A stretch of DNA of 64,000 bases, from positions 384,001 through 448,000 of the forward strand of contig OZ252220.1 in NCBI GenBank assembly GCA_965249135.1, in the 5' to 3' direction. Below are positions 1,049-22,504 of the stretch, piece after piece; position 1 is the stretch's first letter, and every line of letters begins with the position of its first letter. The position numbers were made by a program, and so were the translations under genes. Below the pieces are notes generated by a model, which saw only the letters and a list, made by a program, of their open reading frames with translations, made no database searches and was not told the DNA's origin. The stretch is from Alphaproteobacteria bacterium (GTDB lineage Bacteria > Pseudomonadota > Alphaproteobacteria > GCA-2746255).

Positions 1049-1837
1049 TTAAAACCAAAGCCTAAAACCCGTGACGAAGGAAATGCTTTGGACGTCTCCG
1101 CCTTTGTTGCGTGCGAAGTCGGCAGTGTCGCCGACCTTGTGGCTCCAGGCCACGCCCACATAAGGCGCGAACTCGCGCTCGATCTCGTAGCGCAGACGCA
1201 AGCCCGCTTCCGCCGTGCCGAGCCCCGAGCCGACGCCGATTTCCTCGACATCCTGAACCGCAAAGTTAAGCTCGGCGCGCGGTTGCAGGATCAGCCGCTG
1301 GGTGAGCAGCAACGCGTACTCGGCTTCGATGCGGGCAGAAACGTCGCCGTCTTCGCTGGCGAAGAGGGCGGCATCGACCTCGAACCAATAAGGCGCAAGG
1401 CCCTGGATACCAACAACGCCGTAGGTCTTTGACGGGCGGGGTTTGACGTCGTGCCGAACGCCAGCCTGAAAATCGAAATAAGGCGCGATGGCGCGGCTGT
1501 AGAGCACTTGGACCTCCGCCTCCTCGAAGGCGTCGTCGTCAAAGAGGTATTCGCCTTCGGTCTTCATCCAGACCTTATGGATGTCGCCGCCCACCCAGCC
1601 TTGTGCGTCCCAAAGCAGGCGCGGCGCGCCCTCGTTCGACTGGTATTCGAAGCGGTCGGCTTGCAGAAACAGCAACGTTCCGCCGCCGCTTCCCGCCTGA
1701 AGTTTGCGTTTCGCTGCCGCCATTTTTTCCGGGTCGTAATATTCCGCAGCCGCGTTCCACGTCCCGTCCTGCGCCAAAAGAGGGGCGTTAGCGGTTGCTG
1801 CCGCAACGATGCAAGCCGCGATTGCCAGACTTCGCAT
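1049..1837 (-). CDS. copB: Copper resistance outer-membrane protein CopB
   Basis: WDAQGWVGGD, GLAPYWFEVD, LRLRYEIEREFAPYVGV, C-terminal GFRLWF; directly downstream of copA. Confidence 0.93.
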   Translation of the reverse strand: MRSLAIAACIVAAATANAPLLAQDGTWNAAAEYYDPEKMAAAKRKLQAGSGGGTLLFLQADRFEYQSNEGAPRLLWDAQGWVGGDIHKVWMKTEGEYLFDDDAFEEAEVQVLYSRAIAPYFDFQAGVRHDVKPRPSKTYGVVGIQGLAPYWFEVDAALFASEDGDVSARIEAEYALLLTQRLILQPRAELNFAVQDVEEIGVGSGLGTAEAGLRLRYEIEREFAPYVGVAWSHKVGDTADFARNKGGDVQSISFVTGFRLWF

Positions 1838-3615
1838 TACCGAACCTCCGGCATCCGGTGACGCGTATGGTCCTCGCGATGCTCAGTTGGACGTATCGCG
1901 CCCGCCCGGGTCGCGCTCGCCCGGGCTGCATGTGGCCGGACGGAGACCACCTGCATCATGCCGGCGTGCATGTGGTAGAGCAGGTGACAGTGGAAGGCCC
2001 AGTCCCCAGGCGCGTTCGCGGTGATGTCGACGGATAGTTTTTCCCCCGGCTTGACGATCACCGTGTGCTTGCGCGGCTTGTGGCCCTTGCTACCGTTCAC
2101 CAGCTCGAAGAACATGCCGTGAAGGTGGATTGGATGCGGCATCATGGTGTCGTTCACCATGGTGAGCCGCACCCGTTCGCCCTCGTGAAAAAGGATGGGG
2201 TCGACGACCTCGGAAAACTTCACGCCGTCGAACGACCACATATAGCGCTCCATGTTGCCGGTGAGATGGACCTCCACCTCGCGACTCGGCAGGCGGGTGT
2301 CCGGATTTGGATCGAGACTTCTGAGCTTGGCGTAGCTGAGCGTCCGGTGCGGAACGTCTTCGAGCCCGATCCCCGGTTCGTCCAGGCGACTCGCAGGCGC
2401 CATCGCCACATTGGTGACGCCTGGACCCATCGGATGATCGTGTTCCGTCATGGCGTGGTCGCCATGCCCCGCCATGCCCATGCCCCCCGCCATGCCCATG
2501 TCCTTCATGGTGAGCAGCGGGCGGGGCCGGAGCGGCGGCACCTTTGCCGTCATGCCCGGCCGCGGCGCCAGCGTCGCGCGGCCATAGCCCGACCGGTCGA
2601 TCGACTCGGCCATGAAGGTGAAGGCGCGCTCCGCCGTAGGCTGAACGATGATGTCATAGGTCTCCGCCACGCCCATCTGGAATTCGTCGGTTTCAAGGGG
2701 GCGCAGGTTGAGCCCGTCGGCCTGCACCACCGTCATCGGCAGGCCGGGAACGCGGACGTTGAAGATTGTCGTCGCCGAAGCGTTGATGATGCGCAGGCGT
2801 ACACGTTCGCCTGGATTGAAAAGTGCGGTCCAATTGTCCTCGGGCCCGTGGCCGTTGACCAGATAGGTATAAGTAGCCCCGGTCACATCCGCGATGTCGG
2901 TCGGCGACATGCCCATGCGCCCCCACAGGAGCCGGTCGTCCAGAGCGCTCGCCAGCCCATTCGTGCGTGCGTCTGCGAGGAAGTCGGTGAAGGCGCGTTT
3001 CTGGTAATTGAGACTCTCGCCGTTTTTCTTGAGTACGGCGAACAGGCGATGCGGGTCCATGAAGGTCCAGTCGGACAGCACGATGACGTATTCACGGTCG
3101 TACGCCACCGGATCGTTGCCGGCGGGATCGATGATGAGGGGGCCGTAATGGCCGAGCTGTTCCTGCAGCCCGGAGTGGCTGTGATACCAGTAGGTGCCCG
3201 ATTGGCGGACCGGGAAACGGTAGGTGAACGTTTCGCCGGGCCCGATGCCTGGGAAGGTGATGCCCGGCACCCCGTCCATCTGGAATGGCAGCAGGATGCC
3301 GTGCCAGTGGATCGACGTGTCCTCGTCAAGGCCATTCGTGACGCGCAGGGCGATCTCGTCGCCCTCGCGCCAGCGCAAGAGCGGGGCCGGAACCGTACCG
3401 TTGATGGTAACCGCGTTGCCGGGCCGGCCATCGATGGAAACGGGCGTCTGGCCAATTTTGAGATCAAAGGCCGTTCCGGACAGGGCGTTGATGCCGGATA
3501 GGGCGTTCGTCGTTGCACCGCGCGCCCATGCCGGGAGAAGGGCTTGATAAGCGATCAATCCGCCAACCGAGGCCGCCGTCCTCAAAAATTTTCGCCGTGT
3601 AAACATTCTTCCCAC
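1837..3615 (-). CDS. copA: CopA-family multicopper oxidase
   Basis: Tat signal TRRKFL; copper motifs HWHG, WYHSH, HPIHLHG, HCHLLYHMHAGM; Met/His-rich insert. Confidence 0.95.
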   Translation of the reverse strand: MGRMFTRRKFLRTAASVGGLIAYQALLPAWARGATTNALSGINALSGTAFDLKIGQTPVSIDGRPGNAVTINGTVPAPLLRWREGDEIALRVTNGLDEDTSIHWHGILLPFQMDGVPGITFPGIGPGETFTYRFPVRQSGTYWYHSHSGLQEQLGHYGPLIIDPAGNDPVAYDREYVIVLSDWTFMDPHRLFAVLKKNGESLNYQKRAFTDFLADARTNGLASALDDRLLWGRMGMSPTDIADVTGATYTYLVNGHGPEDNWTALFNPGERVRLRIINASATTIFNVRVPGLPMTVVQADGLNLRPLETDEFQMGVAETYDIIVQPTAERAFTFMAESIDRSGYGRATLAPRPGMTAKVPPLRPRPLLTMKDMGMAGGMGMAGHGDHAMTEHDHPMGPGVTNVAMAPASRLDEPGIGLEDVPHRTLSYAKLRSLDPNPDTRLPSREVEVHLTGNMERYMWSFDGVKFSEVVDPILFHEGERVRLTMVNDTMMPHPIHLHGMFFELVNGSKGHKPRKHTVIVKPGEKLSVDITANAPGDWAFHCHLLYHMHAGMMQVVSVRPHAARASATRAGAIRPTEHREDHTRHRMPEVR

Positions 3616-7187: not shown

Positions 7188-7661
7188 CTATTTGATCTCA
7201 AAGACGTGGTAGGCGACCCCGTTCGGAATGCGCCGTCCAATCGCGATGGCCAGCACGCGGTTCAGCCAGTCGTACTTCTTGGAAGCGGTCTCGAAGCGCA
7301 TGGAACTTCGGAAATAAAGCGTCGAAGGGTCGATCTCCACGTCTTCCCAGAACCGCATGAATTTCTCCATCGTCTCCGGCGTGCCGTGGATGTAGCCATG
7401 GTAGAAGAGGTAGATGAGTTCGCCATCGTCCGTCTTGAGCTGGGTACGGACGTCGATGACCAGCGTCCCATCGTCAAGGATGCGCAGCCAATCCGCGCCT
7501 GGAGCCAGAACCTCCCCCTTCATCTTCGGGCCTTCGAATTCGCCGCCGATGACCTCGACGATCAGGCGGTGGCCGTTTTCCACCGTCTTGCCGACGTCGT
7601 GGACGGCGCCGCCCACGTAAAGCTTGATGTCGAACAGCAGCTCGCCTTGTAGCTCGGGCAA
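7188..7661 (-). CDS. DUF3237 (UPF0311) beta-barrel protein
   Basis: GGEFEGP, GADW, DVRTQLKTDDG, YFR..MRFET..KYDWLN; TTG start with GGAGAGG RBS just after the hcmA stop. Confidence 0.85.
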   Translation of the reverse strand: MPELQGELLFDIKLYVGGAVHDVGKTVENGHRLIVEVIGGEFEGPKMKGEVLAPGADWLRILDDGTLVIDVRTQLKTDDGELIYLFYHGYIHGTPETMEKFMRFWEDVEIDPSTLYFRSSMRFETASKKYDWLNRVLAIAIGRRIPNGVAYHVFEIK

Positions 7662-7676
7662 TTGTGCTTTCCTCTC

Positions 7677-9377
7677 CTAGAAGACCGGCGTTTCGCGATA
7701 GGTCCCCCAAAGCTCCCTTAGGGCCTCGACGATGTCGCCCATGGAGGCGCCTGCCTTCACCAGCTCGACGGTGAGCGGCATCACGTTCTTCGTTTCGTCC
7801 TTCGCCACCTCGACGAGTTCCTTCAACAATTGCTGAACCTTCGCTTCGTCGCGGTCTTTTCGCACCTGGTTCAGCCGCCCGACCTGGCGTTCCGTGATGG
7901 TCTCGTCGTGGGCGTGGAGTTCCACGTCCAGCTTTTCGTCTTCTTCCGTGAACCGGTTGACGCCGATCAGCGGGTATTCGCCGCTCGCCTTCTTCGTCGC
8001 CGTCTCGTAGGCAAAATCGGCGATCTGGCGCTGGAACCAGCCTTCCTCGATCAGCTTCACCGTGCCGCCATGGGCATCGACCTCGTCGAGGATGCGGAAG
8101 GTTTCCTTCTCGAAGTAGGTCGTCAGGTTCTCGACGTAGTAGGACCCGCCCAATGGGTCGGCGACTTGGCTCACGTTCGATTCCTCGGCGATGACCTGCT
8201 GGGTGCGAAGCGCCAGCTTCATCGCCTCTTCCGTCGGAATGGCGAAGGCTTCGTCCATGCCGTTCACGTGCAGGCTTTGGGCGCCGCCCAGAACCGCAGA
8301 CAAGGCCTGTAGGGTCGTCCGCACGGTGTTGACGCGATATTGCGGCTTGGTCAGTGTCGCGGCGGCCGTTCCGCAGTGGAAACGTAGCCGCATCGATTCC
8401 GGGGATCGAGCCCCGAAGCGCTCCTTCATGATCTTCGCGTAGATGCGGCGTGCCGCCCGGAACTTGGCGATCTCCTCGAAGAAGTCCCGTTGGCAGACGA
8501 AGAAGAAGGAGAGGCGGGGCGCGAAGTCGTCGACGTCGATGCCGGCCTTCGTCACCTCGTCCACATAGGTGATCGTGTTCGCCATGGTGAAGGCGAGCTC
8601 CTGCAGCGGCGAGGAGCCGGCCTCCGAGATGTGATAGCCGGAGATGTTGATCGGGTTGAAGCGCTGCATGTGCTCGGCGCAGAACGTGATGCAATCGCGC
8701 ACGATGCGCACGGAGGGCCGGATCGGGTAGATCCATTCCTTTTGCGCCATGTACTCCTTCAGGATGTCGGCCTGGATGGTGCCGGCAAGCCGATGGGGGT
8801 CGAAGCCGCGCTTCTCGCCAAGGGCGTAGTACATGGCGAGCAGGATCCAGGCCGAAGGATTGATCGTCATGGAGACGGAGATGTTTTCCAGATCGATGTC
8901 GGCGTAGAGCGCTTCCATGTCGGCCAAGGTGTCGACGGCGACGCCTTCGCGGCCGACCTCGCCGGTGCTCATCGGGTGGTCCGAGTCGTAGCCCATCAGC
9001 GTCGGCATATCGAAATCCGTCGAGATGCCGGTCTGGCCCTGCGCAATCAGGTATTTGAAACGCCGGTTTGTGTCTTCACCCGTGCCGAAGCCGGCGATCT
9101 GGCGCATCGTCCAGGTGCGGCCGCGATACATGGTCGGGTAGGGGCCGCGGGTGAAAGGATATTGCCCGGGAAGCCCGATGTCCTCGATCGGGGTATCCTG
9201 CAGGTCGAGCGCCGTATAGACCCGCTTCACCGGAATGTCACCGAAGGTGGAAAAATCCTCCTTCTGTTCCGGCTGGCGTTTCAGGAAATGGGCGAGCTCT
9301 TCCTTCTCCCACTTCTCGAGCTGCTGCTCGAGCTGTTCGCGCGCCATGTTGTCCAGGGCCTGCTTCTCGTTGATCAT
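7677..9377 (-). CDS. hcmA: 2-hydroxyisobutyryl-CoA mutase large subunit, variant copy (Q336G, Q348R, I351T, I352V, A355T, T371V)
   Basis: RQIAGFG (Ile94 specificity position), STDFD (Asp121), C-terminal YRETPVF; intact 566-aa ORF with AAGGA RBS. Confidence 0.85.
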   Translation of the reverse strand: MINEKQALDNMAREQLEQQLEKWEKEELAHFLKRQPEQKEDFSTFGDIPVKRVYTALDLQDTPIEDIGLPGQYPFTRGPYPTMYRGRTWTMRQIAGFGTGEDTNRRFKYLIAQGQTGISTDFDMPTLMGYDSDHPMSTGEVGREGVAVDTLADMEALYADIDLENISVSMTINPSAWILLAMYYALGEKRGFDPHRLAGTIQADILKEYMAQKEWIYPIRPSVRIVRDCITFCAEHMQRFNPINISGYHISEAGSSPLQELAFTMANTITYVDEVTKAGIDVDDFAPRLSFFFVCQRDFFEEIAKFRAARRIYAKIMKERFGARSPESMRLRFHCGTAAATLTKPQYRVNTVRTTLQALSAVLGGAQSLHVNGMDEAFAIPTEEAMKLALRTQQVIAEESNVSQVADPLGGSYYVENLTTYFEKETFRILDEVDAHGGTVKLIEEGWFQRQIADFAYETATKKASGEYPLIGVNRFTEEDEKLDVELHAHDETITERQVGRLNQVRKDRDEAKVQQLLKELVEVAKDETKNVMPLTVELVKAGASMGDIVEALRELWGTYRETPVF

Positions 9378-9396
9378 CGCCTATCCTTTAAGCCGC

Positions 9397-11097
9397 CTAG
9401 AAGACCGGCGTTTCGCGATAGGTCCCCCAAAGCTCCCTTAGGGCCTCGACGATGTCGCCCATGGAGGCGCCTGCCTTCACCAGCTCGACGGTGAGCGGCA
9501 TCACGTTCTTCGTTTCGTCCTTCGCCACCTCGACGAGTTCCTTCAACAATTGCTGAACCTTCGCTTCGTCGCGGTCTTTTCGCACCTGGTTCAGCCGCCC
9601 GACCTGGCGTTCCGTGATGGTCTCGTCGTGGGCGTGGAGTTCCACGTCCAGCTTTTCGTCTTCTTCCGTGAACCGGTTGACGCCGATCAGCGGGTATTCG
9701 CCGCTCGCCTTCTTCGTCGCCGTCTCGTAGGCAAAATCGGCGATCTGGCGCTGGAACCAGCCTTCCTCGATCAGCTTCACCGTGCCGCCATGGGCATCGA
9801 CCTCGTCGAGGATGCGGAAGGTTTCCTTCTCGAAGTAGGTCGTCAGGTTCTCGACGTAGTAGGACCCGCCCAATGGGTCGGCGACTTGGCTCACGTTCGA
9901 TTCCTCGGCGATGACCTGCTGGGTGCGAAGCGCCAGCTTCATCGCCTCTTCCGTCGGAATGGCGAAGGCTTCGTCCATGCCGTTCGTGTGCAGGCTTTGG
10001 GCGCCGCCCAGAACCGCAGACAAGGCCTGCAAGGCCGTCCGGATGATGTTCACTTGATACTGCGGCTTGGTGAGCGTGGCTGCCGCCGTTTGACAGTGGA
10101 AACGTAGCCGCATCGATTCCGGGGATCGAGCCCCGAAGCGCTCCTTCATGATCTTCGCGTAGATGCGGCGTGCCGCCCGGAACTTGGCGATCTCCTCGAA
10201 GAAGTCCCGTTGGCAGACGAAGAAGAAGGAGAGGCGGGGCGCGAAGTCGTCGACGTCGATGCCGGCCTTCGTCACCTCGTCCACATAGGTGATCGTGTTC
10301 GCCATGGTGAAGGCGAGCTCCTGCAGCGGCGAGGAGCCGGCCTCCGAGATGTGATAGCCGGAGATGTTGATCGGGTTGAAGCGCTGCATGTGCTCGGCGC
10401 AGAACGTGATGCAATCGCGCACGATGCGCACGGAGGGCCGGATCGGGTAGATCCATTCCTTTTGCGCCATGTACTCCTTCAGGATGTCGGCCTGGATGGT
10501 GCCGGCAAGCCGATGGGGGTCGAAGCCGCGCTTCTCGCCAAGGGCGTAGTACATGGCGAGCAGGATCCAGGCCGAAGGATTGATCGTCATGGAGACGGAG
10601 ATGTTTTCCAGATCGATGTCGGCGTAGAGCGCTTCCATGTCGGCCAAGGTGTCGACGGCGACGCCTTCGCGGCCGACCTCGCCGGTGCTCATCGGGTGGT
10701 CCGAGTCGTAGCCCATCAGCGTCGGCATATCGAAATCCGTCGAGATGCCGGTCTGGCCCTGCGCAATCAGGTATTTGAAACGCCGGTTTGTGTCTTCACC
10801 CGTGCCGAAGCCGGCGATCTGGCGCATCGTCCAGGTGCGGCCGCGATACATGGTCGGGTAGGGGCCGCGGGTGAAAGGATATTGCCCGGGAAGCCCGATG
10901 TCCTCGATCGGGGTATCCTGCAGGTCGAGCGCCGTATAGACCCGCTTCACCGGAATGTCACCGAAGGTGGAAAAATCCTCCTTCTGTTCCGGCTGGCGTT
11001 TCAGGAAATGGGCGAGCTCTTCCTTCTCCCACTTCTCGAGCTGCTGCTCGAGCTGTTCGCGCGCCATGTTGTCCAGGGCCTGCTTCTCGTTGATCAT
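9397..11097 (-). CDS. hcmA: 2-hydroxyisobutyryl-CoA mutase large subunit, canonical copy
   Basis: TRGPYPTMY, RQIAGFG, RFHCQTAA, SLHTNG.DE; matches my recollection of Aquincola-type HcmA; no B12-binding domain (supplied by hcmB). Confidence 0.9.
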   Translation of the reverse strand: MINEKQALDNMAREQLEQQLEKWEKEELAHFLKRQPEQKEDFSTFGDIPVKRVYTALDLQDTPIEDIGLPGQYPFTRGPYPTMYRGRTWTMRQIAGFGTGEDTNRRFKYLIAQGQTGISTDFDMPTLMGYDSDHPMSTGEVGREGVAVDTLADMEALYADIDLENISVSMTINPSAWILLAMYYALGEKRGFDPHRLAGTIQADILKEYMAQKEWIYPIRPSVRIVRDCITFCAEHMQRFNPINISGYHISEAGSSPLQELAFTMANTITYVDEVTKAGIDVDDFAPRLSFFFVCQRDFFEEIAKFRAARRIYAKIMKERFGARSPESMRLRFHCQTAAATLTKPQYQVNIIRTALQALSAVLGGAQSLHTNGMDEAFAIPTEEAMKLALRTQQVIAEESNVSQVADPLGGSYYVENLTTYFEKETFRILDEVDAHGGTVKLIEEGWFQRQIADFAYETATKKASGEYPLIGVNRFTEEDEKLDVELHAHDETITERQVGRLNQVRKDRDEAKVQQLLKELVEVAKDETKNVMPLTVELVKAGASMGDIVEALRELWGTYRETPVF

Positions 11098-11100
11098 CGC

Positions 11101-12069
11101 CTATCCTTCCAACCGCATCTCGGCGAGCAGATCCACCGCCGCCGTGTATGGGTTCTTTTCATGGGCCATCATCTGGCCGATCAGTGCCGAGACTTTCCCG
11201 TCCCGGTGTTTCTTGAATTCGTCGCGCAAGATTTCTTCGGCCGTCTTCAACATCCGCCGTTCGGCGATTTGCTTTTTCCGTTCGGCGATTTCGCCGGAGG
11301 ATTCGAGGGCTTGCCGATGACGGTCGACCGCATCGACAAGCCCATCGATCCCCTCGGCCTTGAGCGCGCTCGTCGCGATCACCGGGACCTCCCAGCCGGA
11401 AGCCCCCGCAAGCGTTAATCCCAACGTCATCATAGCCTTTAAGTCGACGATCGTCCGGTTCGCATCCGGCCGGTCGCACTTGCTGACGACATGGATGTCC
11501 GCAATTTCAAGGATGCCCGCCTTGATCGCCTGGATGTCGTCGCCAAGACCGGGGGCGGAGATGACGACCGTCGTGTGCGCCGCCTGCACGATGTCCACCT
11601 CGTCCTGGCCGACGCCCACCGTCTCGATCAGGACCAAATCGAAACCGGCGGCATCCAGCACATCGACCGCATCCAGCGTGGATCGCGCCAGACCACCGAG
11701 CATGCCCCGCGTCGCCATGCTGCGGATGAAGATCCCCTTATCCCCCGAAAGCTCGTTCATCCGGATGCGATCGCCGAGGATGGCGCCGCCGGAGTAGGGG
11801 CTCGAGGGATCGATGGCGACGACGGCGATCTTGCGGTCGGACTTACGGACGGCGGCCATCAATTTTCCCATCAGTGTCGACTTGCCGCTTCCGGGAACGC
11901 CGGTGATGCCGACGATGTGCGCTCTTCCCGTGTGCCGATAGATATCGGCCATGGCCGGCCGGCACTCCTCGAGGCCCGACTCCGCGCGGGTGATCATCCG
12001 CGCGATCGCGCCGATGTCGGCGGCGAGCACCCGCTCGACGAGCTCAATGGAGGGGACGGCGTTGTTCAT
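11101..12069 (-). CDS. meaH: MeaB/MeaH G-protein chaperone of B12 mutase
   Basis: GVPGSGKS, DPSSPYSGGAILGDRIRM, ETVGVGQ. Confidence 0.92.
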   Translation of the reverse strand: MNNAVPSIELVERVLAADIGAIARMITRAESGLEECRPAMADIYRHTGRAHIVGITGVPGSGKSTLMGKLMAAVRKSDRKIAVVAIDPSSPYSGGAILGDRIRMNELSGDKGIFIRSMATRGMLGGLARSTLDAVDVLDAAGFDLVLIETVGVGQDEVDIVQAAHTTVVISAPGLGDDIQAIKAGILEIADIHVVSKCDRPDANRTIVDLKAMMTLGLTLAGASGWEVPVIATSALKAEGIDGLVDAVDRHRQALESSGEIAERKKQIAERRMLKTAEEILRDEFKKHRDGKVSALIGQMMAHEKNPYTAAVDLLAEMRLEG

Positions 12070-12073
12070 GGCG

Positions 12074-13507
12074 TCACGATCCGGTCATCTTATCTTGCAT
12101 CTCCCGGAAGACATCGCGGTCGTCGATGACGCGACGCGCCTTGAAGTCCGTCCGGGGGATCGAGTTAAGGGGCACGATCTCGACCTTCGTGCGCACCCCC
12201 AACACGCGTTGCAGATTGTCGGCGACGGTGATCCGGAAGCCCGTTATTGCTTCTTCGCCACGCTCGTGGAGCTCGGACGTTGCTTCCACGCGGACCAGCA
12301 ATTCATCCATGGTGCCCTCGCGCGAGACGATGATGCGGTGTTCGCCGCCATAGCCGTCGGTCTTGTTGAGGACGGCATCGATTTCGCTCGGATAGATGTT
12401 TTCCCCGCGAATCGTGAACTGATCGTCGATACGGCCGAAGATGCCGTGCGGAAGGTGCGGATAGGTCCGCCCGCATGGGGCGGGCCCGTCGTAGCGCCAC
12501 TCCGTGAGATCGCCAGACAGCAGGCGGATCATCGGCTGCGAGGTGCGCTCCAAATGCGTATAGACGGGCGTGCCCTTCTCGCCATAGGGGACGCGCCGGA
12601 AATTCACCGGATCGCACACTTCGCTATAGACGATGTCCTGCCACATCAGCATGCCTTCCGGCGTCCCTTCCGAGCCGGCGCAGTTCATCCATGGCGACAT
12701 CTCGGCCATCGAGCCGGAGTCGTAGATTTGGGCGCCATAGATAGCCTTGATCTTGTCGCGAATCCCGGGGATCGACGCCCCCGGCTCGCCGGAGAAGAAC
12801 AGGCATTTCAGGCCGAAGCTCTTCGGGTCCAGCCCTTCCTTGCGGGCCACCTCGCCCAGGTGCAGCGCATAGGAGGGCGTTCCATAAAAAGCCGTCGGCT
12901 TCATCTGATCGAGCCACTGGGCGGCGCGCGCGCTCATGCCGGGGGCGCCGGCGCCGAACGGGAAGGCCTTCGCGTGCAGGCGTTCGGCGCCGATCATCGC
13001 GCCCCACGAACCGAGGTAGAGGCTGAAGATCGCGGCGATGAAGATCGTATTGCCGGGGCGCAGGCCCATCCCGTAGATGATTCGCGCGTGCGCATTGGCA
13101 ATCGAGTCCCAATCGCCGCGGCCGATGGCGAACACGGTGGGCGTACCGGTGGTGCCGGACGTGCCGTGGATGTGATGGATCTCCGATTCGGGGATGCAAA
13201 GGTAATCGCCGAATTTCGGTGCCCGGGTTTGGGCCTCGCGCAAATCCTGTTTCGTCACCACCGGCACCTTGTCCTCGAAATCTTCGAGGGACTTCAGGTG
13301 GTCCGGATGAAAGCCCGCGTCGTCCCACTTCCGCTTGTAGAAGGGGGACTTGTCATAGGCGTAACGGGTGATCTCCTTGAGGCGTTCGAGTATCGCCTTT
13401 TCCCGGTCGCCTGGATCCATCGTTTCGCGCTTCGGAAACCAGTAGGGGGAAGCCGGATCCGGCAGGTAATCGGGATTGAATTTCGGTGGAAATGACCAGT
13501 CTTCCAT
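12074..13507 (-). CDS. hcl: 2-hydroxyisobutyrate-CoA ligase (PaaK-like)
   Basis: GTSGTTG, SGEPG, GRIDD...RGENIYP; N-terminal WSFP...YWFP.RETM as recalled for HCL; located in the hcm operon. Confidence 0.85.
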   Translation of the reverse strand: MEDWSFPPKFNPDYLPDPASPYWFPKRETMDPGDREKAILERLKEITRYAYDKSPFYKRKWDDAGFHPDHLKSLEDFEDKVPVVTKQDLREAQTRAPKFGDYLCIPESEIHHIHGTSGTTGTPTVFAIGRGDWDSIANAHARIIYGMGLRPGNTIFIAAIFSLYLGSWGAMIGAERLHAKAFPFGAGAPGMSARAAQWLDQMKPTAFYGTPSYALHLGEVARKEGLDPKSFGLKCLFFSGEPGASIPGIRDKIKAIYGAQIYDSGSMAEMSPWMNCAGSEGTPEGMLMWQDIVYSEVCDPVNFRRVPYGEKGTPVYTHLERTSQPMIRLLSGDLTEWRYDGPAPCGRTYPHLPHGIFGRIDDQFTIRGENIYPSEIDAVLNKTDGYGGEHRIIVSREGTMDELLVRVEATSELHERGEEAITGFRITVADNLQRVLGVRTKVEIVPLNSIPRTDFKARRVIDDRDVFREMQDKMTGS

Positions 13508-13525
13508 CTCGACTTTTCCTCCCGT

Positions 13526-13942
13526 CTAGCGTGGGCCGCGTTCGGCAACCAAACGCTGCATCGTCTCGATGATGGTTTGAGGGGGCGTGTCCTGTAGCAG
13601 GACCTCCTTCACCCCGATCTTTTTTAGCTTGTCGACTTCTTCATCCGGAATCACGCCGCCGCCGGTGACGATGATATCCTCGGCCTTGTTTTCCTTCAGC
13701 AATTCGATGAGGCGCGGGAACACGGTCATGTGGGCACCGGACAGGATGCTGACGCCGATGATGTCGACGTCTTCCTGAATCGCGGCACGGACGACTTCCT
13801 CCGGCGTGCGGTGTAGGCCGGTATAGATGACATCCATTCCGGCATCGCGAAGCGTGCGAGCCACGACTTTCACGCCACGGTCGTGGCCGTCCAGCCCGAC
13901 CTTTGCGATCAGTACGCGGATGATATCTGAACCCTGGCTCAT
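13526..13942 (-). CDS. hcmB: Cobalamin-binding small mutase subunit
   Basis: DGHDRG (DxHxxG), SILSGAH, GGVIP. Confidence 0.9.
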
Positions 13943-13975
13943 GGTCGAAACTCCCGGATTTTCTCGATCGGTTTC

Positions 13976-14647
13976 TTAGGCTGCCTGGCCGCTTTGCTTG
14001 TGAAGTACGTGCTGCAGTTTTTCGCTCGCCGCCTCGACGTGTTTTTGCGCCAGCGCTTCCGCTTCTTCGGCGTCGCCTTCGGCGATGGCGTCGAGGATCG
14101 CGTCGTGCTCCATCCACACGCTCTCGCCATAGCCTTCGATGCGCAGCACCGCACTCATCACACGCCGAAGGTGATTCAAGTAAAGGCGCATCGTATCGGC
14201 GACGATCGTGTTGCCGGAAAGTTCGTAAATCAGACGGTGAAACTCCATGTCCGCGGCGATCAGCTTCGCAACGGAACCATTGGCAATCGCCTTCTGGCCT
14301 TGGGCTACGATGCGTTTGCCCCGGGTGACGTCCTGGGCCGTCGCGTGTCTGGCCGCCAAGCGCGCCGCCAAGCGGTCGAGCGCGCTTCGAAACTCATAGA
14401 GCGAACGCACGAAGCCCTCCTCGAGGGGAGAGACCATCAGCCCCCGGCGGCCGGACTTGCAGACGAAGCCCTGGCTCTTCAGCAGCATCAGCGCCTGGCC
14501 GACCGGCTGGCGGGAGACGTTGAGCTGTTCGGCGATGCTCTCTTGGGCGAGGCGCTCGCTTGGGGGGAGGCGGCCGTCGCAGATGGAATCGAGGATGGTC
14601 GTGTAGACCTGTTCCATCATACGGGGTTGGACGAGAAGCTTGCGCAC
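13976..14647 (-). CDS. GntR-family regulator (FCD domain)
   Basis: wHTH ERLAQESIAEQLNVSRQPV; FCD motifs DMEFH and EHDAILDAI; GTG start at 14647 with AGGAGG RBS. Confidence 0.9.
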   Translation of the reverse strand: MRKLLVQPRMMEQVYTTILDSICDGRLPPSERLAQESIAEQLNVSRQPVGQALMLLKSQGFVCKSGRRGLMVSPLEEGFVRSLYEFRSALDRLAARLAARHATAQDVTRGKRIVAQGQKAIANGSVAKLIAADMEFHRLIYELSGNTIVADTMRLYLNHLRRVMSAVLRIEGYGESVWMEHDAILDAIAEGDAEEAEALAQKHVEAASEKLQHVLHKQSGQAA

Positions 14648-14660
14648 GGAATCCCTCCTA

Positions 14661-14685
14661 TTTATTGGATACTGTATACAATAAA
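14661..14685. promoter_or_regulatory. Putative GntR operator 1 (TTTATTGGATACTGTATACAATAAA)
   Basis: Near-palindrome just upstream of gntR; core shared with the site at 16552. Confidence 0.65.
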
Positions 14686-14746
14686 CCGGACACGGCGCCG
14701 CCGCAAGAGGCTCGAAAAACAAGCAAATCTTTCAAACCCTTAGTCC

Positions 14747-16486
14747 TCATTCGTCCTCATTTCCGGCCTGCCAGGTGCGCTCGGCGCGGTCCCAGGCTTC
14801 CAGCGGCTGGGTGTCCGGCACCCAGGCTAGGCCCGACTTCCCATCGCCCGAGACCGCCTCGCGGGTCACCAGGACGTCGAGCACGGCCGGCGCGTTTTCG
14901 AAACAGCGTTCGATCGCATCGCCTAAATCCTCGACCCGCTCGACGCGTTCGCCATGGGCGCCAAGGGCGCGGGCCAGTGCGGCGTAATCCGAGTGGCGAA
15001 GTTCCGTGCCGACGAGGTTGCCGTCATAGGTGACGCGCTGGTCGTAGCATTCGATGTTCCAGGCGCCGTTATTGGCGACGACGAAGACCACCTTGGCACC
15101 GTGGCGGACGGCGGTGTCGACCTCGATCGCGTTGAATCCGAAGGAGCCATCCCCGGTTACGACGACGACCTGGCGGTCGGGCAGGGCAAGGGCGGCGGCG
15201 ATTCCAAACGGGACACCGACGCCGAGGCAACCCAAGGAGCCAGAGTCCATATAGGGGCCGGCCGACAGCGCCACGCGGGCGAAACTTAAGATGTCGCCGC
15301 CATCGGCAATGGTCACCGCATCCGGGGCGAGCTTCTCCTGCAAGATGCCGAGCAGGCGGTTCGGGTGCATGTGGCCGTCGCTTCCCGGTGCTGCCGTGGC
15401 GAGGAGGCGCGTGAATTTCTTCCGTTTCTTGCTGTGTTTCTCCCGCACGCCCTTCAGCCAGGCCCGGTCGACGGCGGGCTTTCGGTTGCCGGCCTCTTCC
15501 ACGATGGCGGTCAGCGCCAGCGCCGGTGTGGCCAGGATTTCAGCAAGCCCGCGCCGGTTGTCGCGAAGCTCGGATACGTATTCGGCCAGCCGTACGAAAC
15601 GCGCCTTCTTGAAGATGGCGGGCGATCCGTAGGCCAACTGGAAGTCGAGCCGTCGCCCGACGGTGAGCACGACGTCGGCTTCTGCCATCACCTGGCCGCG
15701 CAGCGAGGAAACCACCGCCGGGTGCGCATCGGGAACCAGACTGCGGCTTTCGGAGGTGTCGAGATAGACGGCATCCAGCGCATCGAGCAGGGCTAGAAGC
15801 TCAGGTCCCGCCTCCCTGGCACCGCGCCCGGAAACGACCAGCGGCCGCTTGGCGTTCCACAGCATCTCGACGGCGCGGCCCACGGCGTCGGCGTCCGGCA
15901 ACCGCTCGGGCTTCGGCTTTGCCTTTCGATGCTCCTCGAAGGCCAAATGGCCGGGCAAGTGTTCGCGCAGGAGATCGGTCGGAAAGTCGAGATAGACCGG
16001 GCCCGGCACGCAGCCGTCGCCGATCGCCCGGGCGAACGCCTCGTCGAGCGCCGGCAGCACGTGGGCCGCCTCCCGCACGGTCCGCGCATAGCGGGTGACG
16101 GAACGCAGCAGGTCCGTGTGCACCAGATCCTGGAGCGCGCCCATCCGTTCCTGGGGGCGGGGCGGCACGCCGGAGATGACGACGATCGGCGCCCGGGCCA
16201 CGTGGGCGTTGACGATGCCGGTCATCGCGTTCGTCACCCCGGGACCGGCCGTCGCCAAAACGACCCCGATGCCGCCGGTAAGTTCGGCATGGGCATGGGC
16301 CATATGGGCGGCGGCGCGCTCGTCACGGACATCCACGATACGGATCCCGCCCCGTGCGGCTTGGTCCCAGATCGGCATGACGTGACCGCCACACAGCCCG
16401 AAGATGCGGTCGATCCCACGCACGGCGAGGAATTCGGCGATCCGGCCGGCCACCGTCTCCGAGGCGGCGACGTCAGAGGCTCCCAT
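14747..16486 (-). CDS. ThDP-dependent 2-hydroxyacyl-CoA lyase (2-HIB-CoA lyase type)
   Basis: FGLCGGH..PIWD, DVRDE, GDGSFG...NN.AWNIE, C-terminal GLAWVPD.Q.L.AW lid resembling the actinobacterial HACL; ATG at 16486 with GGGAG RBS. Confidence 0.8.
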   Translation of the reverse strand: MGASDVAASETVAGRIAEFLAVRGIDRIFGLCGGHVMPIWDQAARGGIRIVDVRDERAAAHMAHAHAELTGGIGVVLATAGPGVTNAMTGIVNAHVARAPIVVISGVPPRPQERMGALQDLVHTDLLRSVTRYARTVREAAHVLPALDEAFARAIGDGCVPGPVYLDFPTDLLREHLPGHLAFEEHRKAKPKPERLPDADAVGRAVEMLWNAKRPLVVSGRGAREAGPELLALLDALDAVYLDTSESRSLVPDAHPAVVSSLRGQVMAEADVVLTVGRRLDFQLAYGSPAIFKKARFVRLAEYVSELRDNRRGLAEILATPALALTAIVEEAGNRKPAVDRAWLKGVREKHSKKRKKFTRLLATAAPGSDGHMHPNRLLGILQEKLAPDAVTIADGGDILSFARVALSAGPYMDSGSLGCLGVGVPFGIAAALALPDRQVVVVTGDGSFGFNAIEVDTAVRHGAKVVFVVANNGAWNIECYDQRVTYDGNLVGTELRHSDYAALARALGAHGERVERVEDLGDAIERCFENAPAVLDVLVTREAVSGDGKSGLAWVPDTQPLEAWDRAERTWQAGNEDE

Positions 16487-16551
16487 GCGGCGTTCTCCCA
16501 AGGGCAAATCGCATTAACTATTTGAATTATATATATTATATATTAGTTTAT

Positions 16552-16568
16552 TTGCATACTGTATACGA
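16552..16568. promoter_or_regulatory. Putative GntR operator 2 (TTGCATACTGTATACGA)
   Basis: 15/17 identical to 14665-14681; lies in the AT-rich region upstream of the lyase. Confidence 0.65.
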
Positions 16569-16589: not shown

Positions 16590-17369
16590 TTATCCGCCGG
16601 CCCGGGCCGTTTTCGTCCTCGCCGCCTCCGTTAAGGCGATTCGACCCACGCCAGGGAGCAGAATGGCGGGCCTTAACGGGTCGAATCCGATGACAAGACC
16701 CATAAAATTAAGCTCAAACCCCTCTTTTTGGCCATAAAGCGCGCCTAAAAGCCCAAAAAACGAGATTTGATGGCCGGTTCCACTGGGAGCGGGGGCAAAA
16801 AACCCGTAATTCAACAGAAAATCCTTGCCGATGGCCGTCGGTGGCAGCGCCAGGCCAAGCTCCGGAACGGCGCGGGCCACATAGGCCGTGAAGGTGTTGC
16901 TGTTCGGTCCCGGCCACATACGGTAATTCGAATGGGGGTAGGCCGCGATGGCGGCGCGCATTTTTTCGAGCACCGCCTCGGCTGGCTTCCCCCGGATGTC
17001 GAGGATGATTTCCGGCGCGTTTCCATACCAATGGCGATCCGGCAGGTCTTCCTCCACCGACAACGCCGGTTTGCCGAACATCGGGTACCAGCCGACCACC
17101 TGGAAGACGGTGAACCGCGCTGCCTTCGCGGGCTTTACGGCGATCCACGTGTGCACCCCGAAGATCCCCCGCCACGAAAAGGCACGCGCCGCGTAGACCT
17201 GCAGGACGGCTTCGGACGTTTCGGCCGGATCCGGCGCAATGCCTGCGCTTTGCCGATCCGCCGTCCGCCAATCGGCGTCGAACTCGACCTCGTCTGCGGC
17301 CAGGCTGACCAGCGGGCCGGCCGCGAAAAGCAGCACGAAAAGCGCCAAAATCCACTGCCATTTGGCCAT
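16590..17369 (-). CDS. DUF3750 domain protein
   Basis: WRTADRQSAG, RGIFGVHTW, YRMWPGPNSNTF, LPPTAIGKD. Confidence 0.85.
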   Translation of the reverse strand: MAKWQWILALFVLLFAAGPLVSLAADEVEFDADWRTADRQSAGIAPDPAETSEAVLQVYAARAFSWRGIFGVHTWIAVKPAKAARFTVFQVVGWYPMFGKPALSVEEDLPDRHWYGNAPEIILDIRGKPAEAVLEKMRAAIAAYPHSNYRMWPGPNSNTFTAYVARAVPELGLALPPTAIGKDFLLNYGFFAPAPSGTGHQISFFGLLGALYGQKEGFELNFMGLVIGFDPLRPAILLPGVGRIALTEAARTKTARAGG

Positions 17370-18740: not shown

Positions 18741-18960
18741 TTTTCAAGGCGACAGGTTTATGGGCAAGTCGCTGACTCGAAATGTCCGTGAGGTGCAAAG
18801 CTAACATTCGCCGCTTGGCCTCGAAGGTCTGCTTTTAGGCAGGAGGGGATGTTTGATGGGTTACGGAAACCGGAATTATATTGGATCGTTGACCGAGCAG
18901 GCCACTCCTCCGCACCCTAAGACTAGGTACGTCCGGCGGATCGAGGAACGGTGAGTAGTG

Positions 18961-20589
18961 ATGCACATAAGCCATGTAGAAATCAGCAATTTTCGGTCGC
19001 TGCAGTCGGTGTCGGTGCCGTTAAATACGTTCAGTGTTTTGCTTGGTGAGAACGATGTGGGGAAAACTTCATTCCTTCATGCTCTCGACAAGTTCTTCCT
19101 TGGTAAGAAGCTCGTTGATCCCAACGATTGGTTCAAGAAGGACACGGGCAACGAAATCCGCATTGTGCTCACTTTTCAGGAAGCTCCCCACGACAGGCTA
19201 AAAGATTTTTGTCGCAGCGATGGGTCAATCGTAGTGAGCAAAGTGTTTCCGTTCGGCGAAAGCCCCCAAATCAAGGCAATTCTCGACGACAATTCCGCTA
19301 TGAGCATCCCAGGGCCGATACTGAGCAAGTGGTTCTCATCGGAGCGATTTCACTTCATTCCTGTCCGTCGTGACCTTGCAGTCCAGCTCTCAATGACCAA
19401 GACCGCTCTTCTCGGAAAAATGCTACGGGCTCGAATGAAGGAAAAACTTACAGATGGGGGCACCAAGACATCTCTTGAAGAACTGGAACACCTCCTTATG
19501 GATTCAATCTCCGAGCCGAGAACAATGCTTGAGAACTTTCTGCGACAGCAGATGCACGATAATGCTGTCCGACTCGGATTTGACGATCTCGAAATCGATC
19601 CGGTGGAGGGGGTCAAGTTCGTTGTGAACTTGTCTGATGATCGCGTAGATAACGTGAAAATTGAAAATCGGGGTGCGGGAACACAGAATAACTTGATCAT
19701 CGCTCTTTTCCGGTTGGTCGCTGACCTTGCTGCCGAGGGCTACCTAATCTTGGCGATGGAGGAACCCGAAAATAGTCTTCATCCGAAGGCACAACGTCAG
19801 CTCTTGTCGGTAATCCAAGAGATTAGCGTCAAATCGCAGGTTATCGTCACCACCCATTCACCTGTATTCATCGATCGGAGCCGTTTCGAGAACAATGTCC
19901 TAATGACACGTACTGCCAGCGGGAACACCGTTGCTAAGACGTTCGATGTTTCGTTACTCGATGAGGTCCGAACCGATCTCGGAATACGGGCGTCAGACGC
20001 GCTCCTTAAGGGCGGTGGAAACTGCGCGATATTAGTTGAAGGTAGTACAGAGGAGGATGGATTTCCAACCTTCATGGAGATGTGTGGAATGAGTGAATTC
20101 CACTTGGGTATCGCAATCATCAATATGAACGGCAGCGACTCTAAAAGAGCCGAAACAATCGCCCGATTACTCTACGCATATGATATCCCCTGCATCATTG
20201 TTTTTGATCGAAATGCAGAAAACGCGGCTAAGGATTTAGAGCGCGCAGCAGCAGCCTCGCTCCCAAACATTAAAAAAGTGTTCTGCCTGAGGAAGGGCAA
20301 CATCGAAGATTACTTTCCCCTTGAAATTATTGCGGATGTCATCAATCGCGAATTAAGTCCGACAAAGGAAGTTACCGTAACTGATTTCGATTCGAGCAAG
20401 TCGGGACAAGACCGTCTCAATGATTTCAAGAAGGTTATGTACGAACACGGAGCTGGCGGATCCACCAGGTACTTGAAAAGACTCCTCGGTGGTCTCGGGG
20501 CCAGGTTGATAAAGGAACGAGCTATACCCCTCGATCCTGAACTTGTTGAAATATTCAACACTGTTAAGGCAATTGCCGATCCGGATTAG
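18961..20589 (+). CDS. OLD-family ABC-ATPase/TOPRIM nuclease (putative anti-phage)
   Basis: ISNFRS, Walker A GENDVGKT, Walker B EEPE..LHP, TTHS, TOPRIM ILVEG..EE, IEDY; visibly lower GC than its flanks. Confidence 0.85.
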   Translation: MHISHVEISNFRSLQSVSVPLNTFSVLLGENDVGKTSFLHALDKFFLGKKLVDPNDWFKKDTGNEIRIVLTFQEAPHDRLKDFCRSDGSIVVSKVFPFGESPQIKAILDDNSAMSIPGPILSKWFSSERFHFIPVRRDLAVQLSMTKTALLGKMLRARMKEKLTDGGTKTSLEELEHLLMDSISEPRTMLENFLRQQMHDNAVRLGFDDLEIDPVEGVKFVVNLSDDRVDNVKIENRGAGTQNNLIIALFRLVADLAAEGYLILAMEEPENSLHPKAQRQLLSVIQEISVKSQVIVTTHSPVFIDRSRFENNVLMTRTASGNTVAKTFDVSLLDEVRTDLGIRASDALLKGGGNCAILVEGSTEEDGFPTFMEMCGMSEFHLGIAIINMNGSDSKRAETIARLLYAYDIPCIIVFDRNAENAAKDLERAAAASLPNIKKVFCLRKGNIEDYFPLEIIADVINRELSPTKEVTVTDFDSSKSGQDRLNDFKKVMYEHGAGGSTRYLKRLLGGLGARLIKERAIPLDPELVEIFNTVKAIADPD

Positions 20590-20765: not shown

Positions 20766-21710
20766 CTAACCAGCGGGTGGCGGGTTGATGGCCTGGTGCT
20801 CGATGAGCCAGTTGCGGCTCACCCGGATGATCGTCTCCATCAGCTCGCGGTCGCCCGGCATCATGTGATCCGATTTTAATGTCACGATCGTCTTCGGCTC
20901 CGGCAGCAACGCGCGCAGCCGTTCGACCGTCTCGAAGGGCACGAGGCGATCGTCGCTGCCGTTCAGCAGCAGGAATTCCCCTTTCAGATGGGGAAGGTGA
21001 TGGACCGGCTCGAGCTCACGCAAGCCAAGCACGGCAAGACCGGTAAGCGTACCCCGAAGCCACGCCGGTTCCTTGCGAAAGGCGAACCGGAAGATCGGTG
21101 CAAGATCGGCCCCGCCATAGGCGATGATCGAGGGGCCGATCCGCATCCCATGCAGGCGCGCCATGTGATGGACGGCGGGCAGGTAGAGCGCGCCGAGGCT
21201 GAAGCCGAGCAGGCTGGTCCGCCCGTCCGACCAGGCTTGCCCGCGTGCCCAGCTGAGGACGGCAAGGATTTGGGCCGGCACCTGGCGGGAGGCCCGCCGG
21301 GCGGCCAGCATCCGTCGCGGCCACCATGCTTCGTACCAGGCCTCCCTCGACAAGGGATAGTCATAGCCGATCACCGCGTTTGCGCCCGCCTTCGGCACCT
21401 CAAAGATGCTGCGCTTGCCGGTGTCGAAACCGCCAAGCAGGATCACGGTGGCAAGGCCGCCTTCCGGCGTCGCCTCGGGCAGGCTTAAGGAGATCTCGAC
21501 CGCATCGAAGCCTTCGAGGCCAAGGGTGATGGCCGTACACACGCGGTGCGGCTCGCACGCCATGGGCTGTTCGCGTAGCAGGCGCGCCGGCGGGATATTG
21601 TCTTGGATGAGCGCCAAGGGGTCTTTCATCTTTTCATGGCCGATCCAGCCACCAAGGAAGAGGATGCCGGCGCCCAAGACGAAAAGAATACCGAGAAGAA
21701 GTGTTTTCAT
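20766..21710 (-). CDS. Membrane-anchored alpha/beta-hydrolase-fold protein
   Basis: N-terminal TM segment, GFSLG nucleophile elbow, NGSDD..VP, SDH. Confidence 0.65.
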   Translation of the reverse strand: MKTLLLGILFVLGAGILFLGGWIGHEKMKDPLALIQDNIPPARLLREQPMACEPHRVCTAITLGLEGFDAVEISLSLPEATPEGGLATVILLGGFDTGKRSIFEVPKAGANAVIGYDYPLSREAWYEAWWPRRMLAARRASRQVPAQILAVLSWARGQAWSDGRTSLLGFSLGALYLPAVHHMARLHGMRIGPSIIAYGGADLAPIFRFAFRKEPAWLRGTLTGLAVLGLRELEPVHHLPHLKGEFLLLNGSDDRLVPFETVERLRALLPEPKTIVTLKSDHMMPGDRELMETIIRVSRNWLIEHQAINPPPAG

Positions 21711-21740
21711 CGAGACTTCCTCCGATCCTTCGGCTTCCTC

Positions 21741-21782
21741 ATTCCCAGGGCGCCAATTCCCAGGGCGCCAATTCCTAGGGCG
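21741..21782. repeat. 15-bp tandem repeat ATTCCCAGGGCGCCA x~2.8
   Basis: Seen directly, upstream of the hydrolase start. Confidence 0.8.
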
Positions 21783-21891
21783 AAGGGATAAGGATTGTCG
21801 CACGAAGCGGAGGAAAGGGAAGGGCCGGACCTTTTTGGCCAGACCTTTCCTTGTTAGGCCAGGCCCTTCCTTGAAAACTGGCCTTGAAAAC

Positions 21892-21967
21892 TGGCTCCCC
21901 GGGTCGGACTCGAACCAACGACACAGCGGTTAACAGCCGCTTGCTCTACCAACTGAGCTACCGGGGA
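21892..21967 (-). tRNA. tRNA-Asn(GTT)
   Basis: TCCCCGGTAGCTCAGTTGGTAGAGC...CTGTTAA...GGTTCGAGTCC...GGGGAGCCA, 76 nt. Confidence 0.96.
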
Positions 21968-22430: not shown

Positions 22431-22504
22431 TGGAGGCGCGGGCCGGAATCGAACCGGCGTACACAGATTTGCAGTCTGCTGGATAACCACTCTCCCACCG
22501 CGCC
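22431..22504 (-). tRNA. tRNA-Cys(GCA)
   Basis: GGCGCGGTGGGAGAGTGGTT...CTGCAAA...GGTTCGATTCCGGCCCGCGCCTCCA, 74 nt. Confidence 0.96.

Follow-up and report, generated by a model that had tools for sequence, protein, structure and literature searches.

We analysed a window of 64,000 nucleotides (nt) from an alphaproteobacterial genome (contig OZ252220.1, positions 384,001 to 448,000; G000:C1:384001-448000), which is assembled as a single contig of 2.118 Mb with a completeness of 98.75%. On the minus strand of this window, an operon of eight co-oriented genes (7188-16507) combines a thiamine diphosphate (ThDP)-dependent 2-hydroxyacyl-CoA lyase with a B12-dependent mutase for 2-hydroxyisobutyryl-CoA (2-HIB-CoA) and a single CoA ligase. 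The gene for the lyase, which is of the AcHACL type, comes first (14747-16507; 586 amino acids; NF058623, PDB 7pt1). It is followed by a GntR/FCD transcription regulator gene (gntR, 13976-14722; Pfam GntR and FCD domains), hcmB for the small B12-binding mutase subunit (13526-13942; 138 amino acids), hcl for 2-hydroxyisobutyrate-CoA ligase (HCL; 12074-13507; 477 amino acids), meaH for a MeaB-type G-protein chaperone (11101-12069; 322 amino acids), hcmA for the mutase large subunit of the standard type (9397-11097) and its tandem copy hcmA' (7677-9377). The last gene of the array, 15 nt after hcmA', encodes a DUF3237 protein (7188-7661; 157 amino acids; PF11578, 140 bits). According to the list of open reading frames (ORFs), the intergenic gaps across the eight genes measure 3-33 nt. 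ORF, Pfam and NCBIfam evidence confirmed the existence, strand and order of the seven genes named in an earlier note on this DNA; the coordinates given there, 11101-16568, span meaH to the lyase gene only, and both hcmA copies fall outside them. Promoter and terminator scans yielded chance-level results (1 promoter where 2.8 were expected; 15 terminators where 11.8 were). A DUF3750 gene in the same orientation (16590-17369, minus strand) is located 82 nt upstream of the lyase gene.

Profile and structure comparisons place the ThDP enzyme clearly in the actinobacterial-type 2-hydroxyacyl-CoA lyase family and not among the acetolactate synthases. It reached 851.9 bits with the NF058623 equivalog of this family (cut-off 600), and rival models remained below their cut-offs (acetolactate synthase PRK05858, 350.9 versus 587 bits; oxalyl-CoA decarboxylase, 239 versus 557 bits). 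Among the solved structures, the Actinomycetospora enzyme AcHACL (7pt1) scored 622 bits and the next family 197.6 bits. Counted from the alignment to chain 7pt1_A with a chain offset of 11, residues E63, L125, Q126, I485 and E486 correspond to AcHACL E65, L127, Q128, I492 and E493. The alignment covers the C-terminal lid, extending to residue 577 of 586, the equivalent of AcHACL residue 583. In the available passages on AcHACL, E493 is the catalytic glutamate on a short helix, E65 activates the cofactor, L127 and I492 limit substrate size and an extended C-terminal lid (residues 556-590) restricts substrates to C5 or smaller (PMC8760513). The same passages report cleavage of 2-HIB-CoA with a Km of ~120 µM and a kcat of 1.3 per s, cleavage of the C5 homologue at comparable rates and reversibility of the reaction (PMC8760513). 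The assignment to the 2-HIB-CoA lyase type made in the earlier note was upheld, and both the glutamate motif and the lid are present in the alignment; the grouping with acetolactate synthases, which the note had named as the contrary outcome, was not observed.

Sequence comparison likewise identified hcl, hcmA and hcmB as close relatives of the solved Aquincola enzymes. HCL matched the Aquincola 2-hydroxyisobutyryl-CoA synthetase (6hdw) with 782 bits over residues 1-474, whereas phenylacetate-CoA ligases scored far lower (PaaK structures at most 230 bits; PaaK equivalog 252.5 versus 646.3). HcmA and HcmA' matched Aquincola 4r3u with 986.9 and 980.1 bits, respectively, and both contain the motifs MRQIAGFG and GISTDFD. 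Residues I94 and D121 of HcmA align with I90 and D117, which we take to be the specificity sites of Aquincola 2-hydroxyisobutyryl-CoA mutase (HCM); methylmalonyl-CoA mutases (MCMs) carry Y (F in chain 5req) at the position of the isoleucine and A at that of the aspartate. HcmB was recognized by PF02310 and TIGR00640 (155 bits) and contains DGHDRG as DxHxxG motif. MeaH was recognized by PF03308 (301.9 bits) and TIGR00750 (325.8 versus 240.75 bits) and contains the P-loop GVPGSGKST. The cluster thus encodes, as expected for HcmAB, a separate small B12-binding subunit with DxHxxG motif and a MeaB-type chaperone. As the earlier note had described, lyase and HcmAB mutase share a single hcl inside one operon.

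The hcmA and hcmA' genes form a tandem repeat of 1720 nt, which begins 11 nt ahead of the ATG, takes in the ribosome-binding site and ends shortly after the stop codon; the joint contains 7 filler bases. At the DNA level the copies are identical save for 20 substitutions confined to a 108-bp patch (alignment columns 1008-1115), located at 8266-8373 (minus strand) in hcmA' with its counterpart at 9986-10093 in hcmA. The patch comprises six non-synonymous codons (Q336G, Q348R, I351T, I352V, A355T and T371V) and nine synonymous ones. Q336 belongs to the motif HxQT and T371 to LHTN; both residues are retained in Aquincola HcmA, in the MCMs of human, M. tuberculosis and P. shermanii and in the hcmA products of six relatives. 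HcmA has the Gln and Thr of these motifs and HcmA' has G336 and V371 instead, which by its sequence makes HcmA' a variant and not a standard HcmA. Among 121 HcmA-like proteins, consisting of the best 120 of 4944 matches and the window copy, 118 showed Q and T and only three showed G336 together with V371. These three are the window copy and two proteins from two other assemblies, P0002 and P0003. P0002, encoded on a 52.9-kb contig, displays the full patch on a background that is 15 other residues away from the window copy, and P0003 differs from a Q/T twin (P0023) solely at positions 336 and 371, both proteins being recorded on a 652,446-nt contig. Among the G/V proteins the background tracks the partner gene at the same locus, whereas G336 and V371 are retained; we read this pattern as gene conversion counteracted by selection at these two positions.

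A donor of the patch was not found in the same genome, where the other three mutase genes matched only short pieces at 73-78%, and separate scans of JGI metagenome contigs with the G336 and V371 motifs gave 0 matches each. A diversity-generating retroelement as source of the patch was rejected, as the changes are not confined to adenines. Sequencing run X1 contained separate 124-nt contig pieces that match each patch version with zero differences, at depths of 3 and 4.9 against ~8.5 in shared parts, which fits two copies; this run is the probable origin of the assembly, and the read check is not independent evidence. Runs X5 and X7 from other studies had no cover in bins 8252-8395 and 9260-9403 and provide evidence neither way, and run X6 yielded 124-nt pieces at both patch places with 10 and 5 differences. 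A structural role of Q336 and T371 is suggested by their conservation together with the placement of MCM residues N366 and E370 of the same motif, which presumably line the active site. A text search of the literature on the equivalent MCM residue Gln330 gave nothing on its role. We read hcmA' as a putative functional variant with a changed cavity.

To what extent the operon is conserved was examined in related genomes. Lyase, hcl and one hcmA occur in all five other species of the genus. They are found within ~7 kb on one contig in G001, G002, G003 and G005; in G004 a contig break separates lyase and hcl, which are on the same contig, from the rest of hcmA on another. In contrast to this genus, the 35 relatives sampled from other families had neither a lyase nor an hcl match at E 1e-100. 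A class-wide sample of 401 genomes contained hcl in eight, the lyase in 19 and both in six (G000, G001, G004, G005, G165 and G307), and adjacency of the two genes was restricted to four genomes of this genus; they lie on different contigs in G165 and ~592 kb apart in G307. The dN/dS ratio of the lyase gene was 0.17 and 0.15 relative to loci L004 and L006, respectively, and ratios of 0.08-0.10 were obtained for hcl and hcmA. These lyase values indicate purifying selection on a maintained gene, not a decaying passenger. A ratio of 2.18 for gntR of L004 was an alignment artefact and was dropped. The operon is probably maintained vertically.

The earlier note had called for a survey of lyase and hcm co-localisation and had treated the two routes as alternatives in different organisms. 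With one genome per species, 21 loci encoding a lyase relative were collected, and hcm or hcl genes accompanied the lyase in 10 of these loci from other species (L004, L005, L006, L015, L017, L018, L019, L020, L021 and L023). Whenever the sequence of such a combined locus reached the position of the ligase, hcl was present (8/8); L005 and L019 end before it. The position of gntR is conserved in L004, L005, L006 and L015, and a DUF3237 gene follows hcmA in L006 but not in L004. Nine of the eleven remaining lyase loci were examined (L013 and L022 were left out), and five of the nine, all without hcm genes, have a different AMP-binding ligase beside the lyase (L007, L010, L014, L016 and L024). 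A plasmid collection provided seven records with a lyase homologue. Four of them were examined, and two of these, the plasmids of Azoarcus KH32C and Cupriavidus basilensis, again carry a different, generic AMP-binding ligase beside the lyase, together with a GntR regulator. All 15 lyases tested from metagenome-assembled and other genomes and the four plasmid lyases passed the NF058623 cut-off with 666-1018 bits, as did 7/7 of the combined loci tested (L005, L020, L021 and L023 left out). In a quick tree of the lyases, hcm-linked members formed four or more supported groups, which are separate from each other and interspersed with ligase-linked lyases; as the base of the tree is not resolved, it supports no claim of independent origins.

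At the gene level, the view of the routes as alternatives in different organisms proved wrong, because they are paired in the megaplasmid of Methylibium petroleiphilum PM1 and in plasmid pELW1-1 of Mycobacterium sp. ELW1 as well. Since PM1 and ELW1 already carry lyase and mutase genes, the pairing itself is not new. In its available passages, a 2020 paper presents the lyase-HCL cluster as lacking a mutase and hcl as previously seen only together with mutase genes (PMC7176365), and those of a 2026 paper on ELW1 name the lyase gene of cluster 2 as a possible minor route (PMC13188929). The PM1 lyase gene was not discussed in the searchable literature, a search that covers text but neither figures nor supplements. 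In this literature, lyase and mutase were named together in the two Rohwerder/Zahn papers only, and the PM1 locus tags led to a single genome note in which the tag of the lyase is absent. New here are the hcmA/hcmA' pair, as the newest feature, and the conserved lyase-first operon in a B12-dependent genus with small genomes.

The mutase depends on cobalamin, and the supply of this cofactor was followed through the genome. CobN, CobS and CobU had 0 matches and only two TP_methylase genes were found, one of them beside CbiX, on which basis de novo corrin synthesis is not encoded. CobQ, CobD and a PduO-type adenosyltransferase are present, and a BtuB-like receptor gene is preceded by a cobalamin riboswitch (114.9 bits). 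CobQ, CobD, CbiX and one TP_methylase survive together at G000:C1:1461507-1465906 (L029, 5507-9906), where the CobD match, in the frame given by the genome search, contains an in-frame TGA; the group may represent a set for partial salvage or a remnant. Besides HCM, the genome encodes an MCM (1243.7 versus 876 bits), IcmF (1853.8 versus 1500 bits) and a third fused mutase. Together with the missing de novo synthesis, these B12 mutases indicate a heavy dependence on imported B12.

A candidate sink for acetone, one of the two expected lyase products, is an acetone-carboxylase-like enzyme of three subunits (hydantoinase A-like, hydantoinase B-like and gamma) encoded at C1:1339175-1344220. Its alpha and beta subunits matched Xanthobacter acetone carboxylase (5svb) with 369.8 and 548.3 bits, versus 127.5 and 316.7 bits for acetophenone carboxylase, and reached no NCBIfam equivalog. 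A gene for an acetyl/acetoacetyl-CoA-synthetase-like ligase adjoins the carboxylase genes, and the alpha subunit is found in four of the five congeners. The unusual neighbourhood of the carboxylase (L025, G000:C1:1330001-1349000) also contains three OYE (old yellow enzyme)-type flavoproteins, two acyl-CoA dehydrogenases, a MaoC hydratase, a family III CoA-transferase and a GntR/UTRA regulator, and looks like a cluster for a ketone or a cyclic substrate. No oxalyl-CoA decarboxylase was seen in the genome, and the other ThDP enzymes found there are of acetolactate-synthase types.

On balance, and with some reserve, we favour the reading that the array is a catabolic operon for tertiary 2-hydroxy acids of the 2-hydroxyisobutyrate type, with a branch point at the CoA ester, from which we infer the following direction of the lyase, division of labour and function of HcmA'. 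HCL would activate the free 2-hydroxy acid to 2-HIB-CoA; the free acid is taken as input because hcl is present in all eight combined loci that reach its position. HcmAB, assisted by MeaH and imported cobalamin, would convert 2-HIB-CoA to 3-hydroxybutyryl-CoA as the carbon-conserving main route, and the AcHACL-type lyase would cleave the same ester pool to a ketone, namely acetone, and formyl-CoA. The lyase might handle what the mutase leaves, be it under B12 shortage, after inactivation of the mutase or in the form of C5 homologues, and acetone could enter metabolism via the acetone-carboxylase-like enzyme. HcmA' would provide another large subunit, with an altered active site (Q336G, T371V), that works with the HcmB and MeaH of HcmA. 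Selection would keep it distinct from HcmA in the face of gene conversion, the most likely benefit being a different substrate range. Three explanations for keeping both routes would be conceivable, namely B12 economy in an auxotroph, rescue from an inactivated radical enzyme and the use of side substrates.

Several observations weigh against this catabolic branch point. According to the available text on ELW1, this strain carries the lyase and yet needs Co2+ for growth on 2-hydroxyisobutyric acid (2-HIBA) (PMC13188929). Because of this requirement, the lyase is not a sufficient B12-free route in ELW1. The window is devoid of a cobalamin riboswitch and shows no sign of B12-responsive switching between the routes, and the cobalt need of ELW1 and the riboswitch-free operon both weigh against a simple B12-free bypass. 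None of the four hcl-bearing genomes outside the genus in the class sample has the lyase adjacent. The acetone sink is a diverged relative of acetone carboxylase situated among OYE flavoproteins and acyl-CoA dehydrogenases, so that its substrate is uncertain, and its alpha subunit was not found in G002, a genome with 91% completeness. As to formyl-CoA, none of the four family III CoA-transferases in the genome reaches the formyl-CoA transferase cut-off, and no formate dehydrogenase alpha subunit over cut-off was detected in the genome.

A bolder and more tentative version of the branch-point reading assigns HcmA' the role of a neofunctionalised large subunit that shares HcmB and MeaH. Q336G and T371V would open the cavity for a different acyl-CoA, for example a C5 tertiary 2-hydroxyacyl-CoA; gene conversion would homogenise the rest of the gene while selection holds the two sites, and the lyase and the ketone carboxylase would provide a cobalamin-sparing route. 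If true, the products of a single ligase have three fates within this operon, in a small-genome alphaproteobacterium auxotrophic for B12.

Doubtful, but better placed than the remaining alternatives, is a partition of substrates, in which HCL makes several tertiary 2-hydroxyacyl-CoAs, HcmAB takes 2-HIB-CoA and the lyase and/or HcmA' take homologues such as 2-hydroxy-2-methylbutyryl-CoA that the standard mutase cannot isomerise. The cleavage of the C5 ester by AcHACL at comparable rates and the lid limit of C5 or smaller would agree with this (PMC8760513, available passages), as would the replacement of two polar residues, conserved family-wide, by smaller or apolar ones in HcmA'. Moreover, the different AMP-binding ligases beside the lyase in five of nine loci without hcm genes and on two of four plasmids indicate that the lyase family serves other acids too. 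However, the window lyase keeps the equivalents of L127, I492 and E493 of AcHACL, whose native substrate is 2-HIB-CoA, and a partition of substrates overlaps with the catabolic branch point without excluding it.

We regard as improbable the linked assimilation route that the earlier note had offered as its second option. According to this proposal, the lyase condenses acetone or another ketone with formyl-CoA to a 2-hydroxyacyl-CoA, which HcmAB converts to 3-hydroxybutyryl-CoA, in line with a proposal made for Desulfococcus biacutus. In its favour, the lyase works in both directions (PMC8760513), a distant lyase candidate and an RcmAB-like mutase have been proposed for sulfate reducers in the accessible parts of two papers (PMC7176365, PMC7888143), and the gene spacing suggests co-transcription of lyase and mutase. 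In contrast, hcl is kept in the operon and in 8/8 of the combined loci reaching its position, whereas the acetone-degrading strain is described, in the available text, as lacking HCL (PMC7176365). Furthermore, a formyl-CoA transferase over cut-off was missing among the four candidates, acetolactate-synthase types were the only other ThDP enzymes found, with no oxalyl-CoA decarboxylase among them, and a separate acetone-carboxylase-like enzyme is available. Taken together, the retained hcl, the failure to find a source of formyl-CoA and the separate candidate for an acetone sink make it unlikely that the lyase is an acetone-assimilating step. Least probable of all is that hcmA' is no real second gene but either an artefact produced by assembling two co-existing strains or a neutral duplicate of recent date heading to loss. 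In favour of this, all five congeners show a single hcmA, and the read check draws on what is probably the assembly's own sample. Against it, two further database proteins carry G336 and V371, one with the complete patch and a background differing at 15 residues, the other differing from its twin on a 652,446-nt contig only at these sites; run X1 contains exact matches to each patch version (depths 3 and 4.9 versus ~8.5 in shared parts); and nine synonymous codon changes are unexpected in a fresh duplicate.

Lyase and mutase routes have been described as alternatives, yet their genes occur together in model degraders and in many uncultured lineages. The division of labour between them, whether B12 economy, side substrates or reverse C1 condensation, is directly testable; PM1 is a cultured strain with the same pairing. 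C1 extension based on formyl-CoA makes the lyase interesting, and natural lyases that act next to a mutase offer useful points of departure. The hcmA/hcmA' pair represents a compact natural experiment, in which two residues conserved across acyl-CoA mutases were changed and then kept.

The surroundings of the operon in the window are chromosomal (valS, argS, ilvD and scpAB, and a DUF2497 gene adjoining a TolC-like gene). A copper resistance pair consisting of a CopA-like multicopper oxidase and CopB is located a few kb from the operon (1049-3615, minus strand). An OLD-family ATPase/TOPRIM nuclease (18958-20589, plus strand) lies within the stretch of lowest GC content of the window (0.549). 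Its top PADLOC match was GajA (137.8 bits), with AriA and Old scoring close behind, and no GajB-like partner was seen beside it. With its neighbours, an unannotatable ORF of 345 amino acids (20766-21803, minus strand), tRNA-Asn (21892-21967) and tRNA-Cys (22431-22504), it may form a small defence islet. A group II intron is present at 47770-49669 (plus strand), with domains D1-D4 matching RF02003 (84.7 bits) and the D5-D6 end matching RF00029 (44.2 bits).

Among known systems, Desulfococcus biacutus also combines lyase and mutase activities around 2-HIB-CoA in one organism. According to the available passages, however, its pathway runs from acetone to 3-hydroxybutyryl-CoA, its lyase candidate is only 22% identical to AcHACL, its mutase is of the Rcm type and it lacks HCL (PMC7176365). 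The HcmAB and HCL of Aquincola tertiaricarbonis are matched closely by the window proteins (986.9 and 980.1 bits with 4r3u for HcmA and HcmA', 782 bits with 6hdw for HCL), with the difference that Aquincola HcmA has Q and T where HcmA' of the window has G and V. Actinomycetospora chiangmaiensis possesses a lyase of the same family, encoded directly upstream of hcl. AcHACL and the window lyase share the catalytic glutamate, the size-limiting Leu and Ile and the C-terminal lid. The Actinomycetospora genome is described, in the available text, as lacking a 2-HIB-CoA mutase and as channelling acetone through the MimABCD monooxygenase (PMC7176365); in the genome analysed here, lyase and mutase belong to one operon, and acetone would be handled by a candidate carboxylase.

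Two known degrader strains show the same gene pairing. Ibc cluster 2 on pELW1-1 of Mycobacterium sp. ELW1 combines an NF058623-class lyase (684.8 bits) with hcmB, hcl, meaB, hcmA and an FCD regulator, as in the window, but ~4.5 kb with oppositely oriented genes separate the lyase gene from hcmA, genes for cobalamin synthesis adjoin the cluster and the host is an actinobacterium that, in the passages available, requires Co2+ for growth on 2-HIBA (PMC13188929). The PM1 megaplasmid (NC_008826.1, 487205-497737) encodes hcmB, hcl, meaB and hcmA followed by a co-oriented NF058623-class lyase (741.8 bits). A reversed gntR stands at the head of this cluster; behind it hcmB, hcl, meaB, hcmA, a hypothetical gene, an adenosyltransferase, the lyase, a gamma-carbonic-anhydrase-family gene, a second adenosyltransferase and 3-hydroxybutyryl-CoA dehydrogenase are all read in one orientation, so that the lyase region additionally holds two adenosyltransferase genes, the carbonic-anhydrase-family gene and the dehydrogenase. 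The gamma-carbonic-anhydrase-family gene follows the lyase directly with a 4-nt overlap (L039, 13806-14828). This is suggestive, as such an enzyme would be relevant if acetone is carboxylated or bicarbonate is needed. Whereas the PM1 lyase is plasmid-borne and lies downstream of a single hcmA, the window lyase is the first gene of a chromosomal operon in which hcmA is duplicated.

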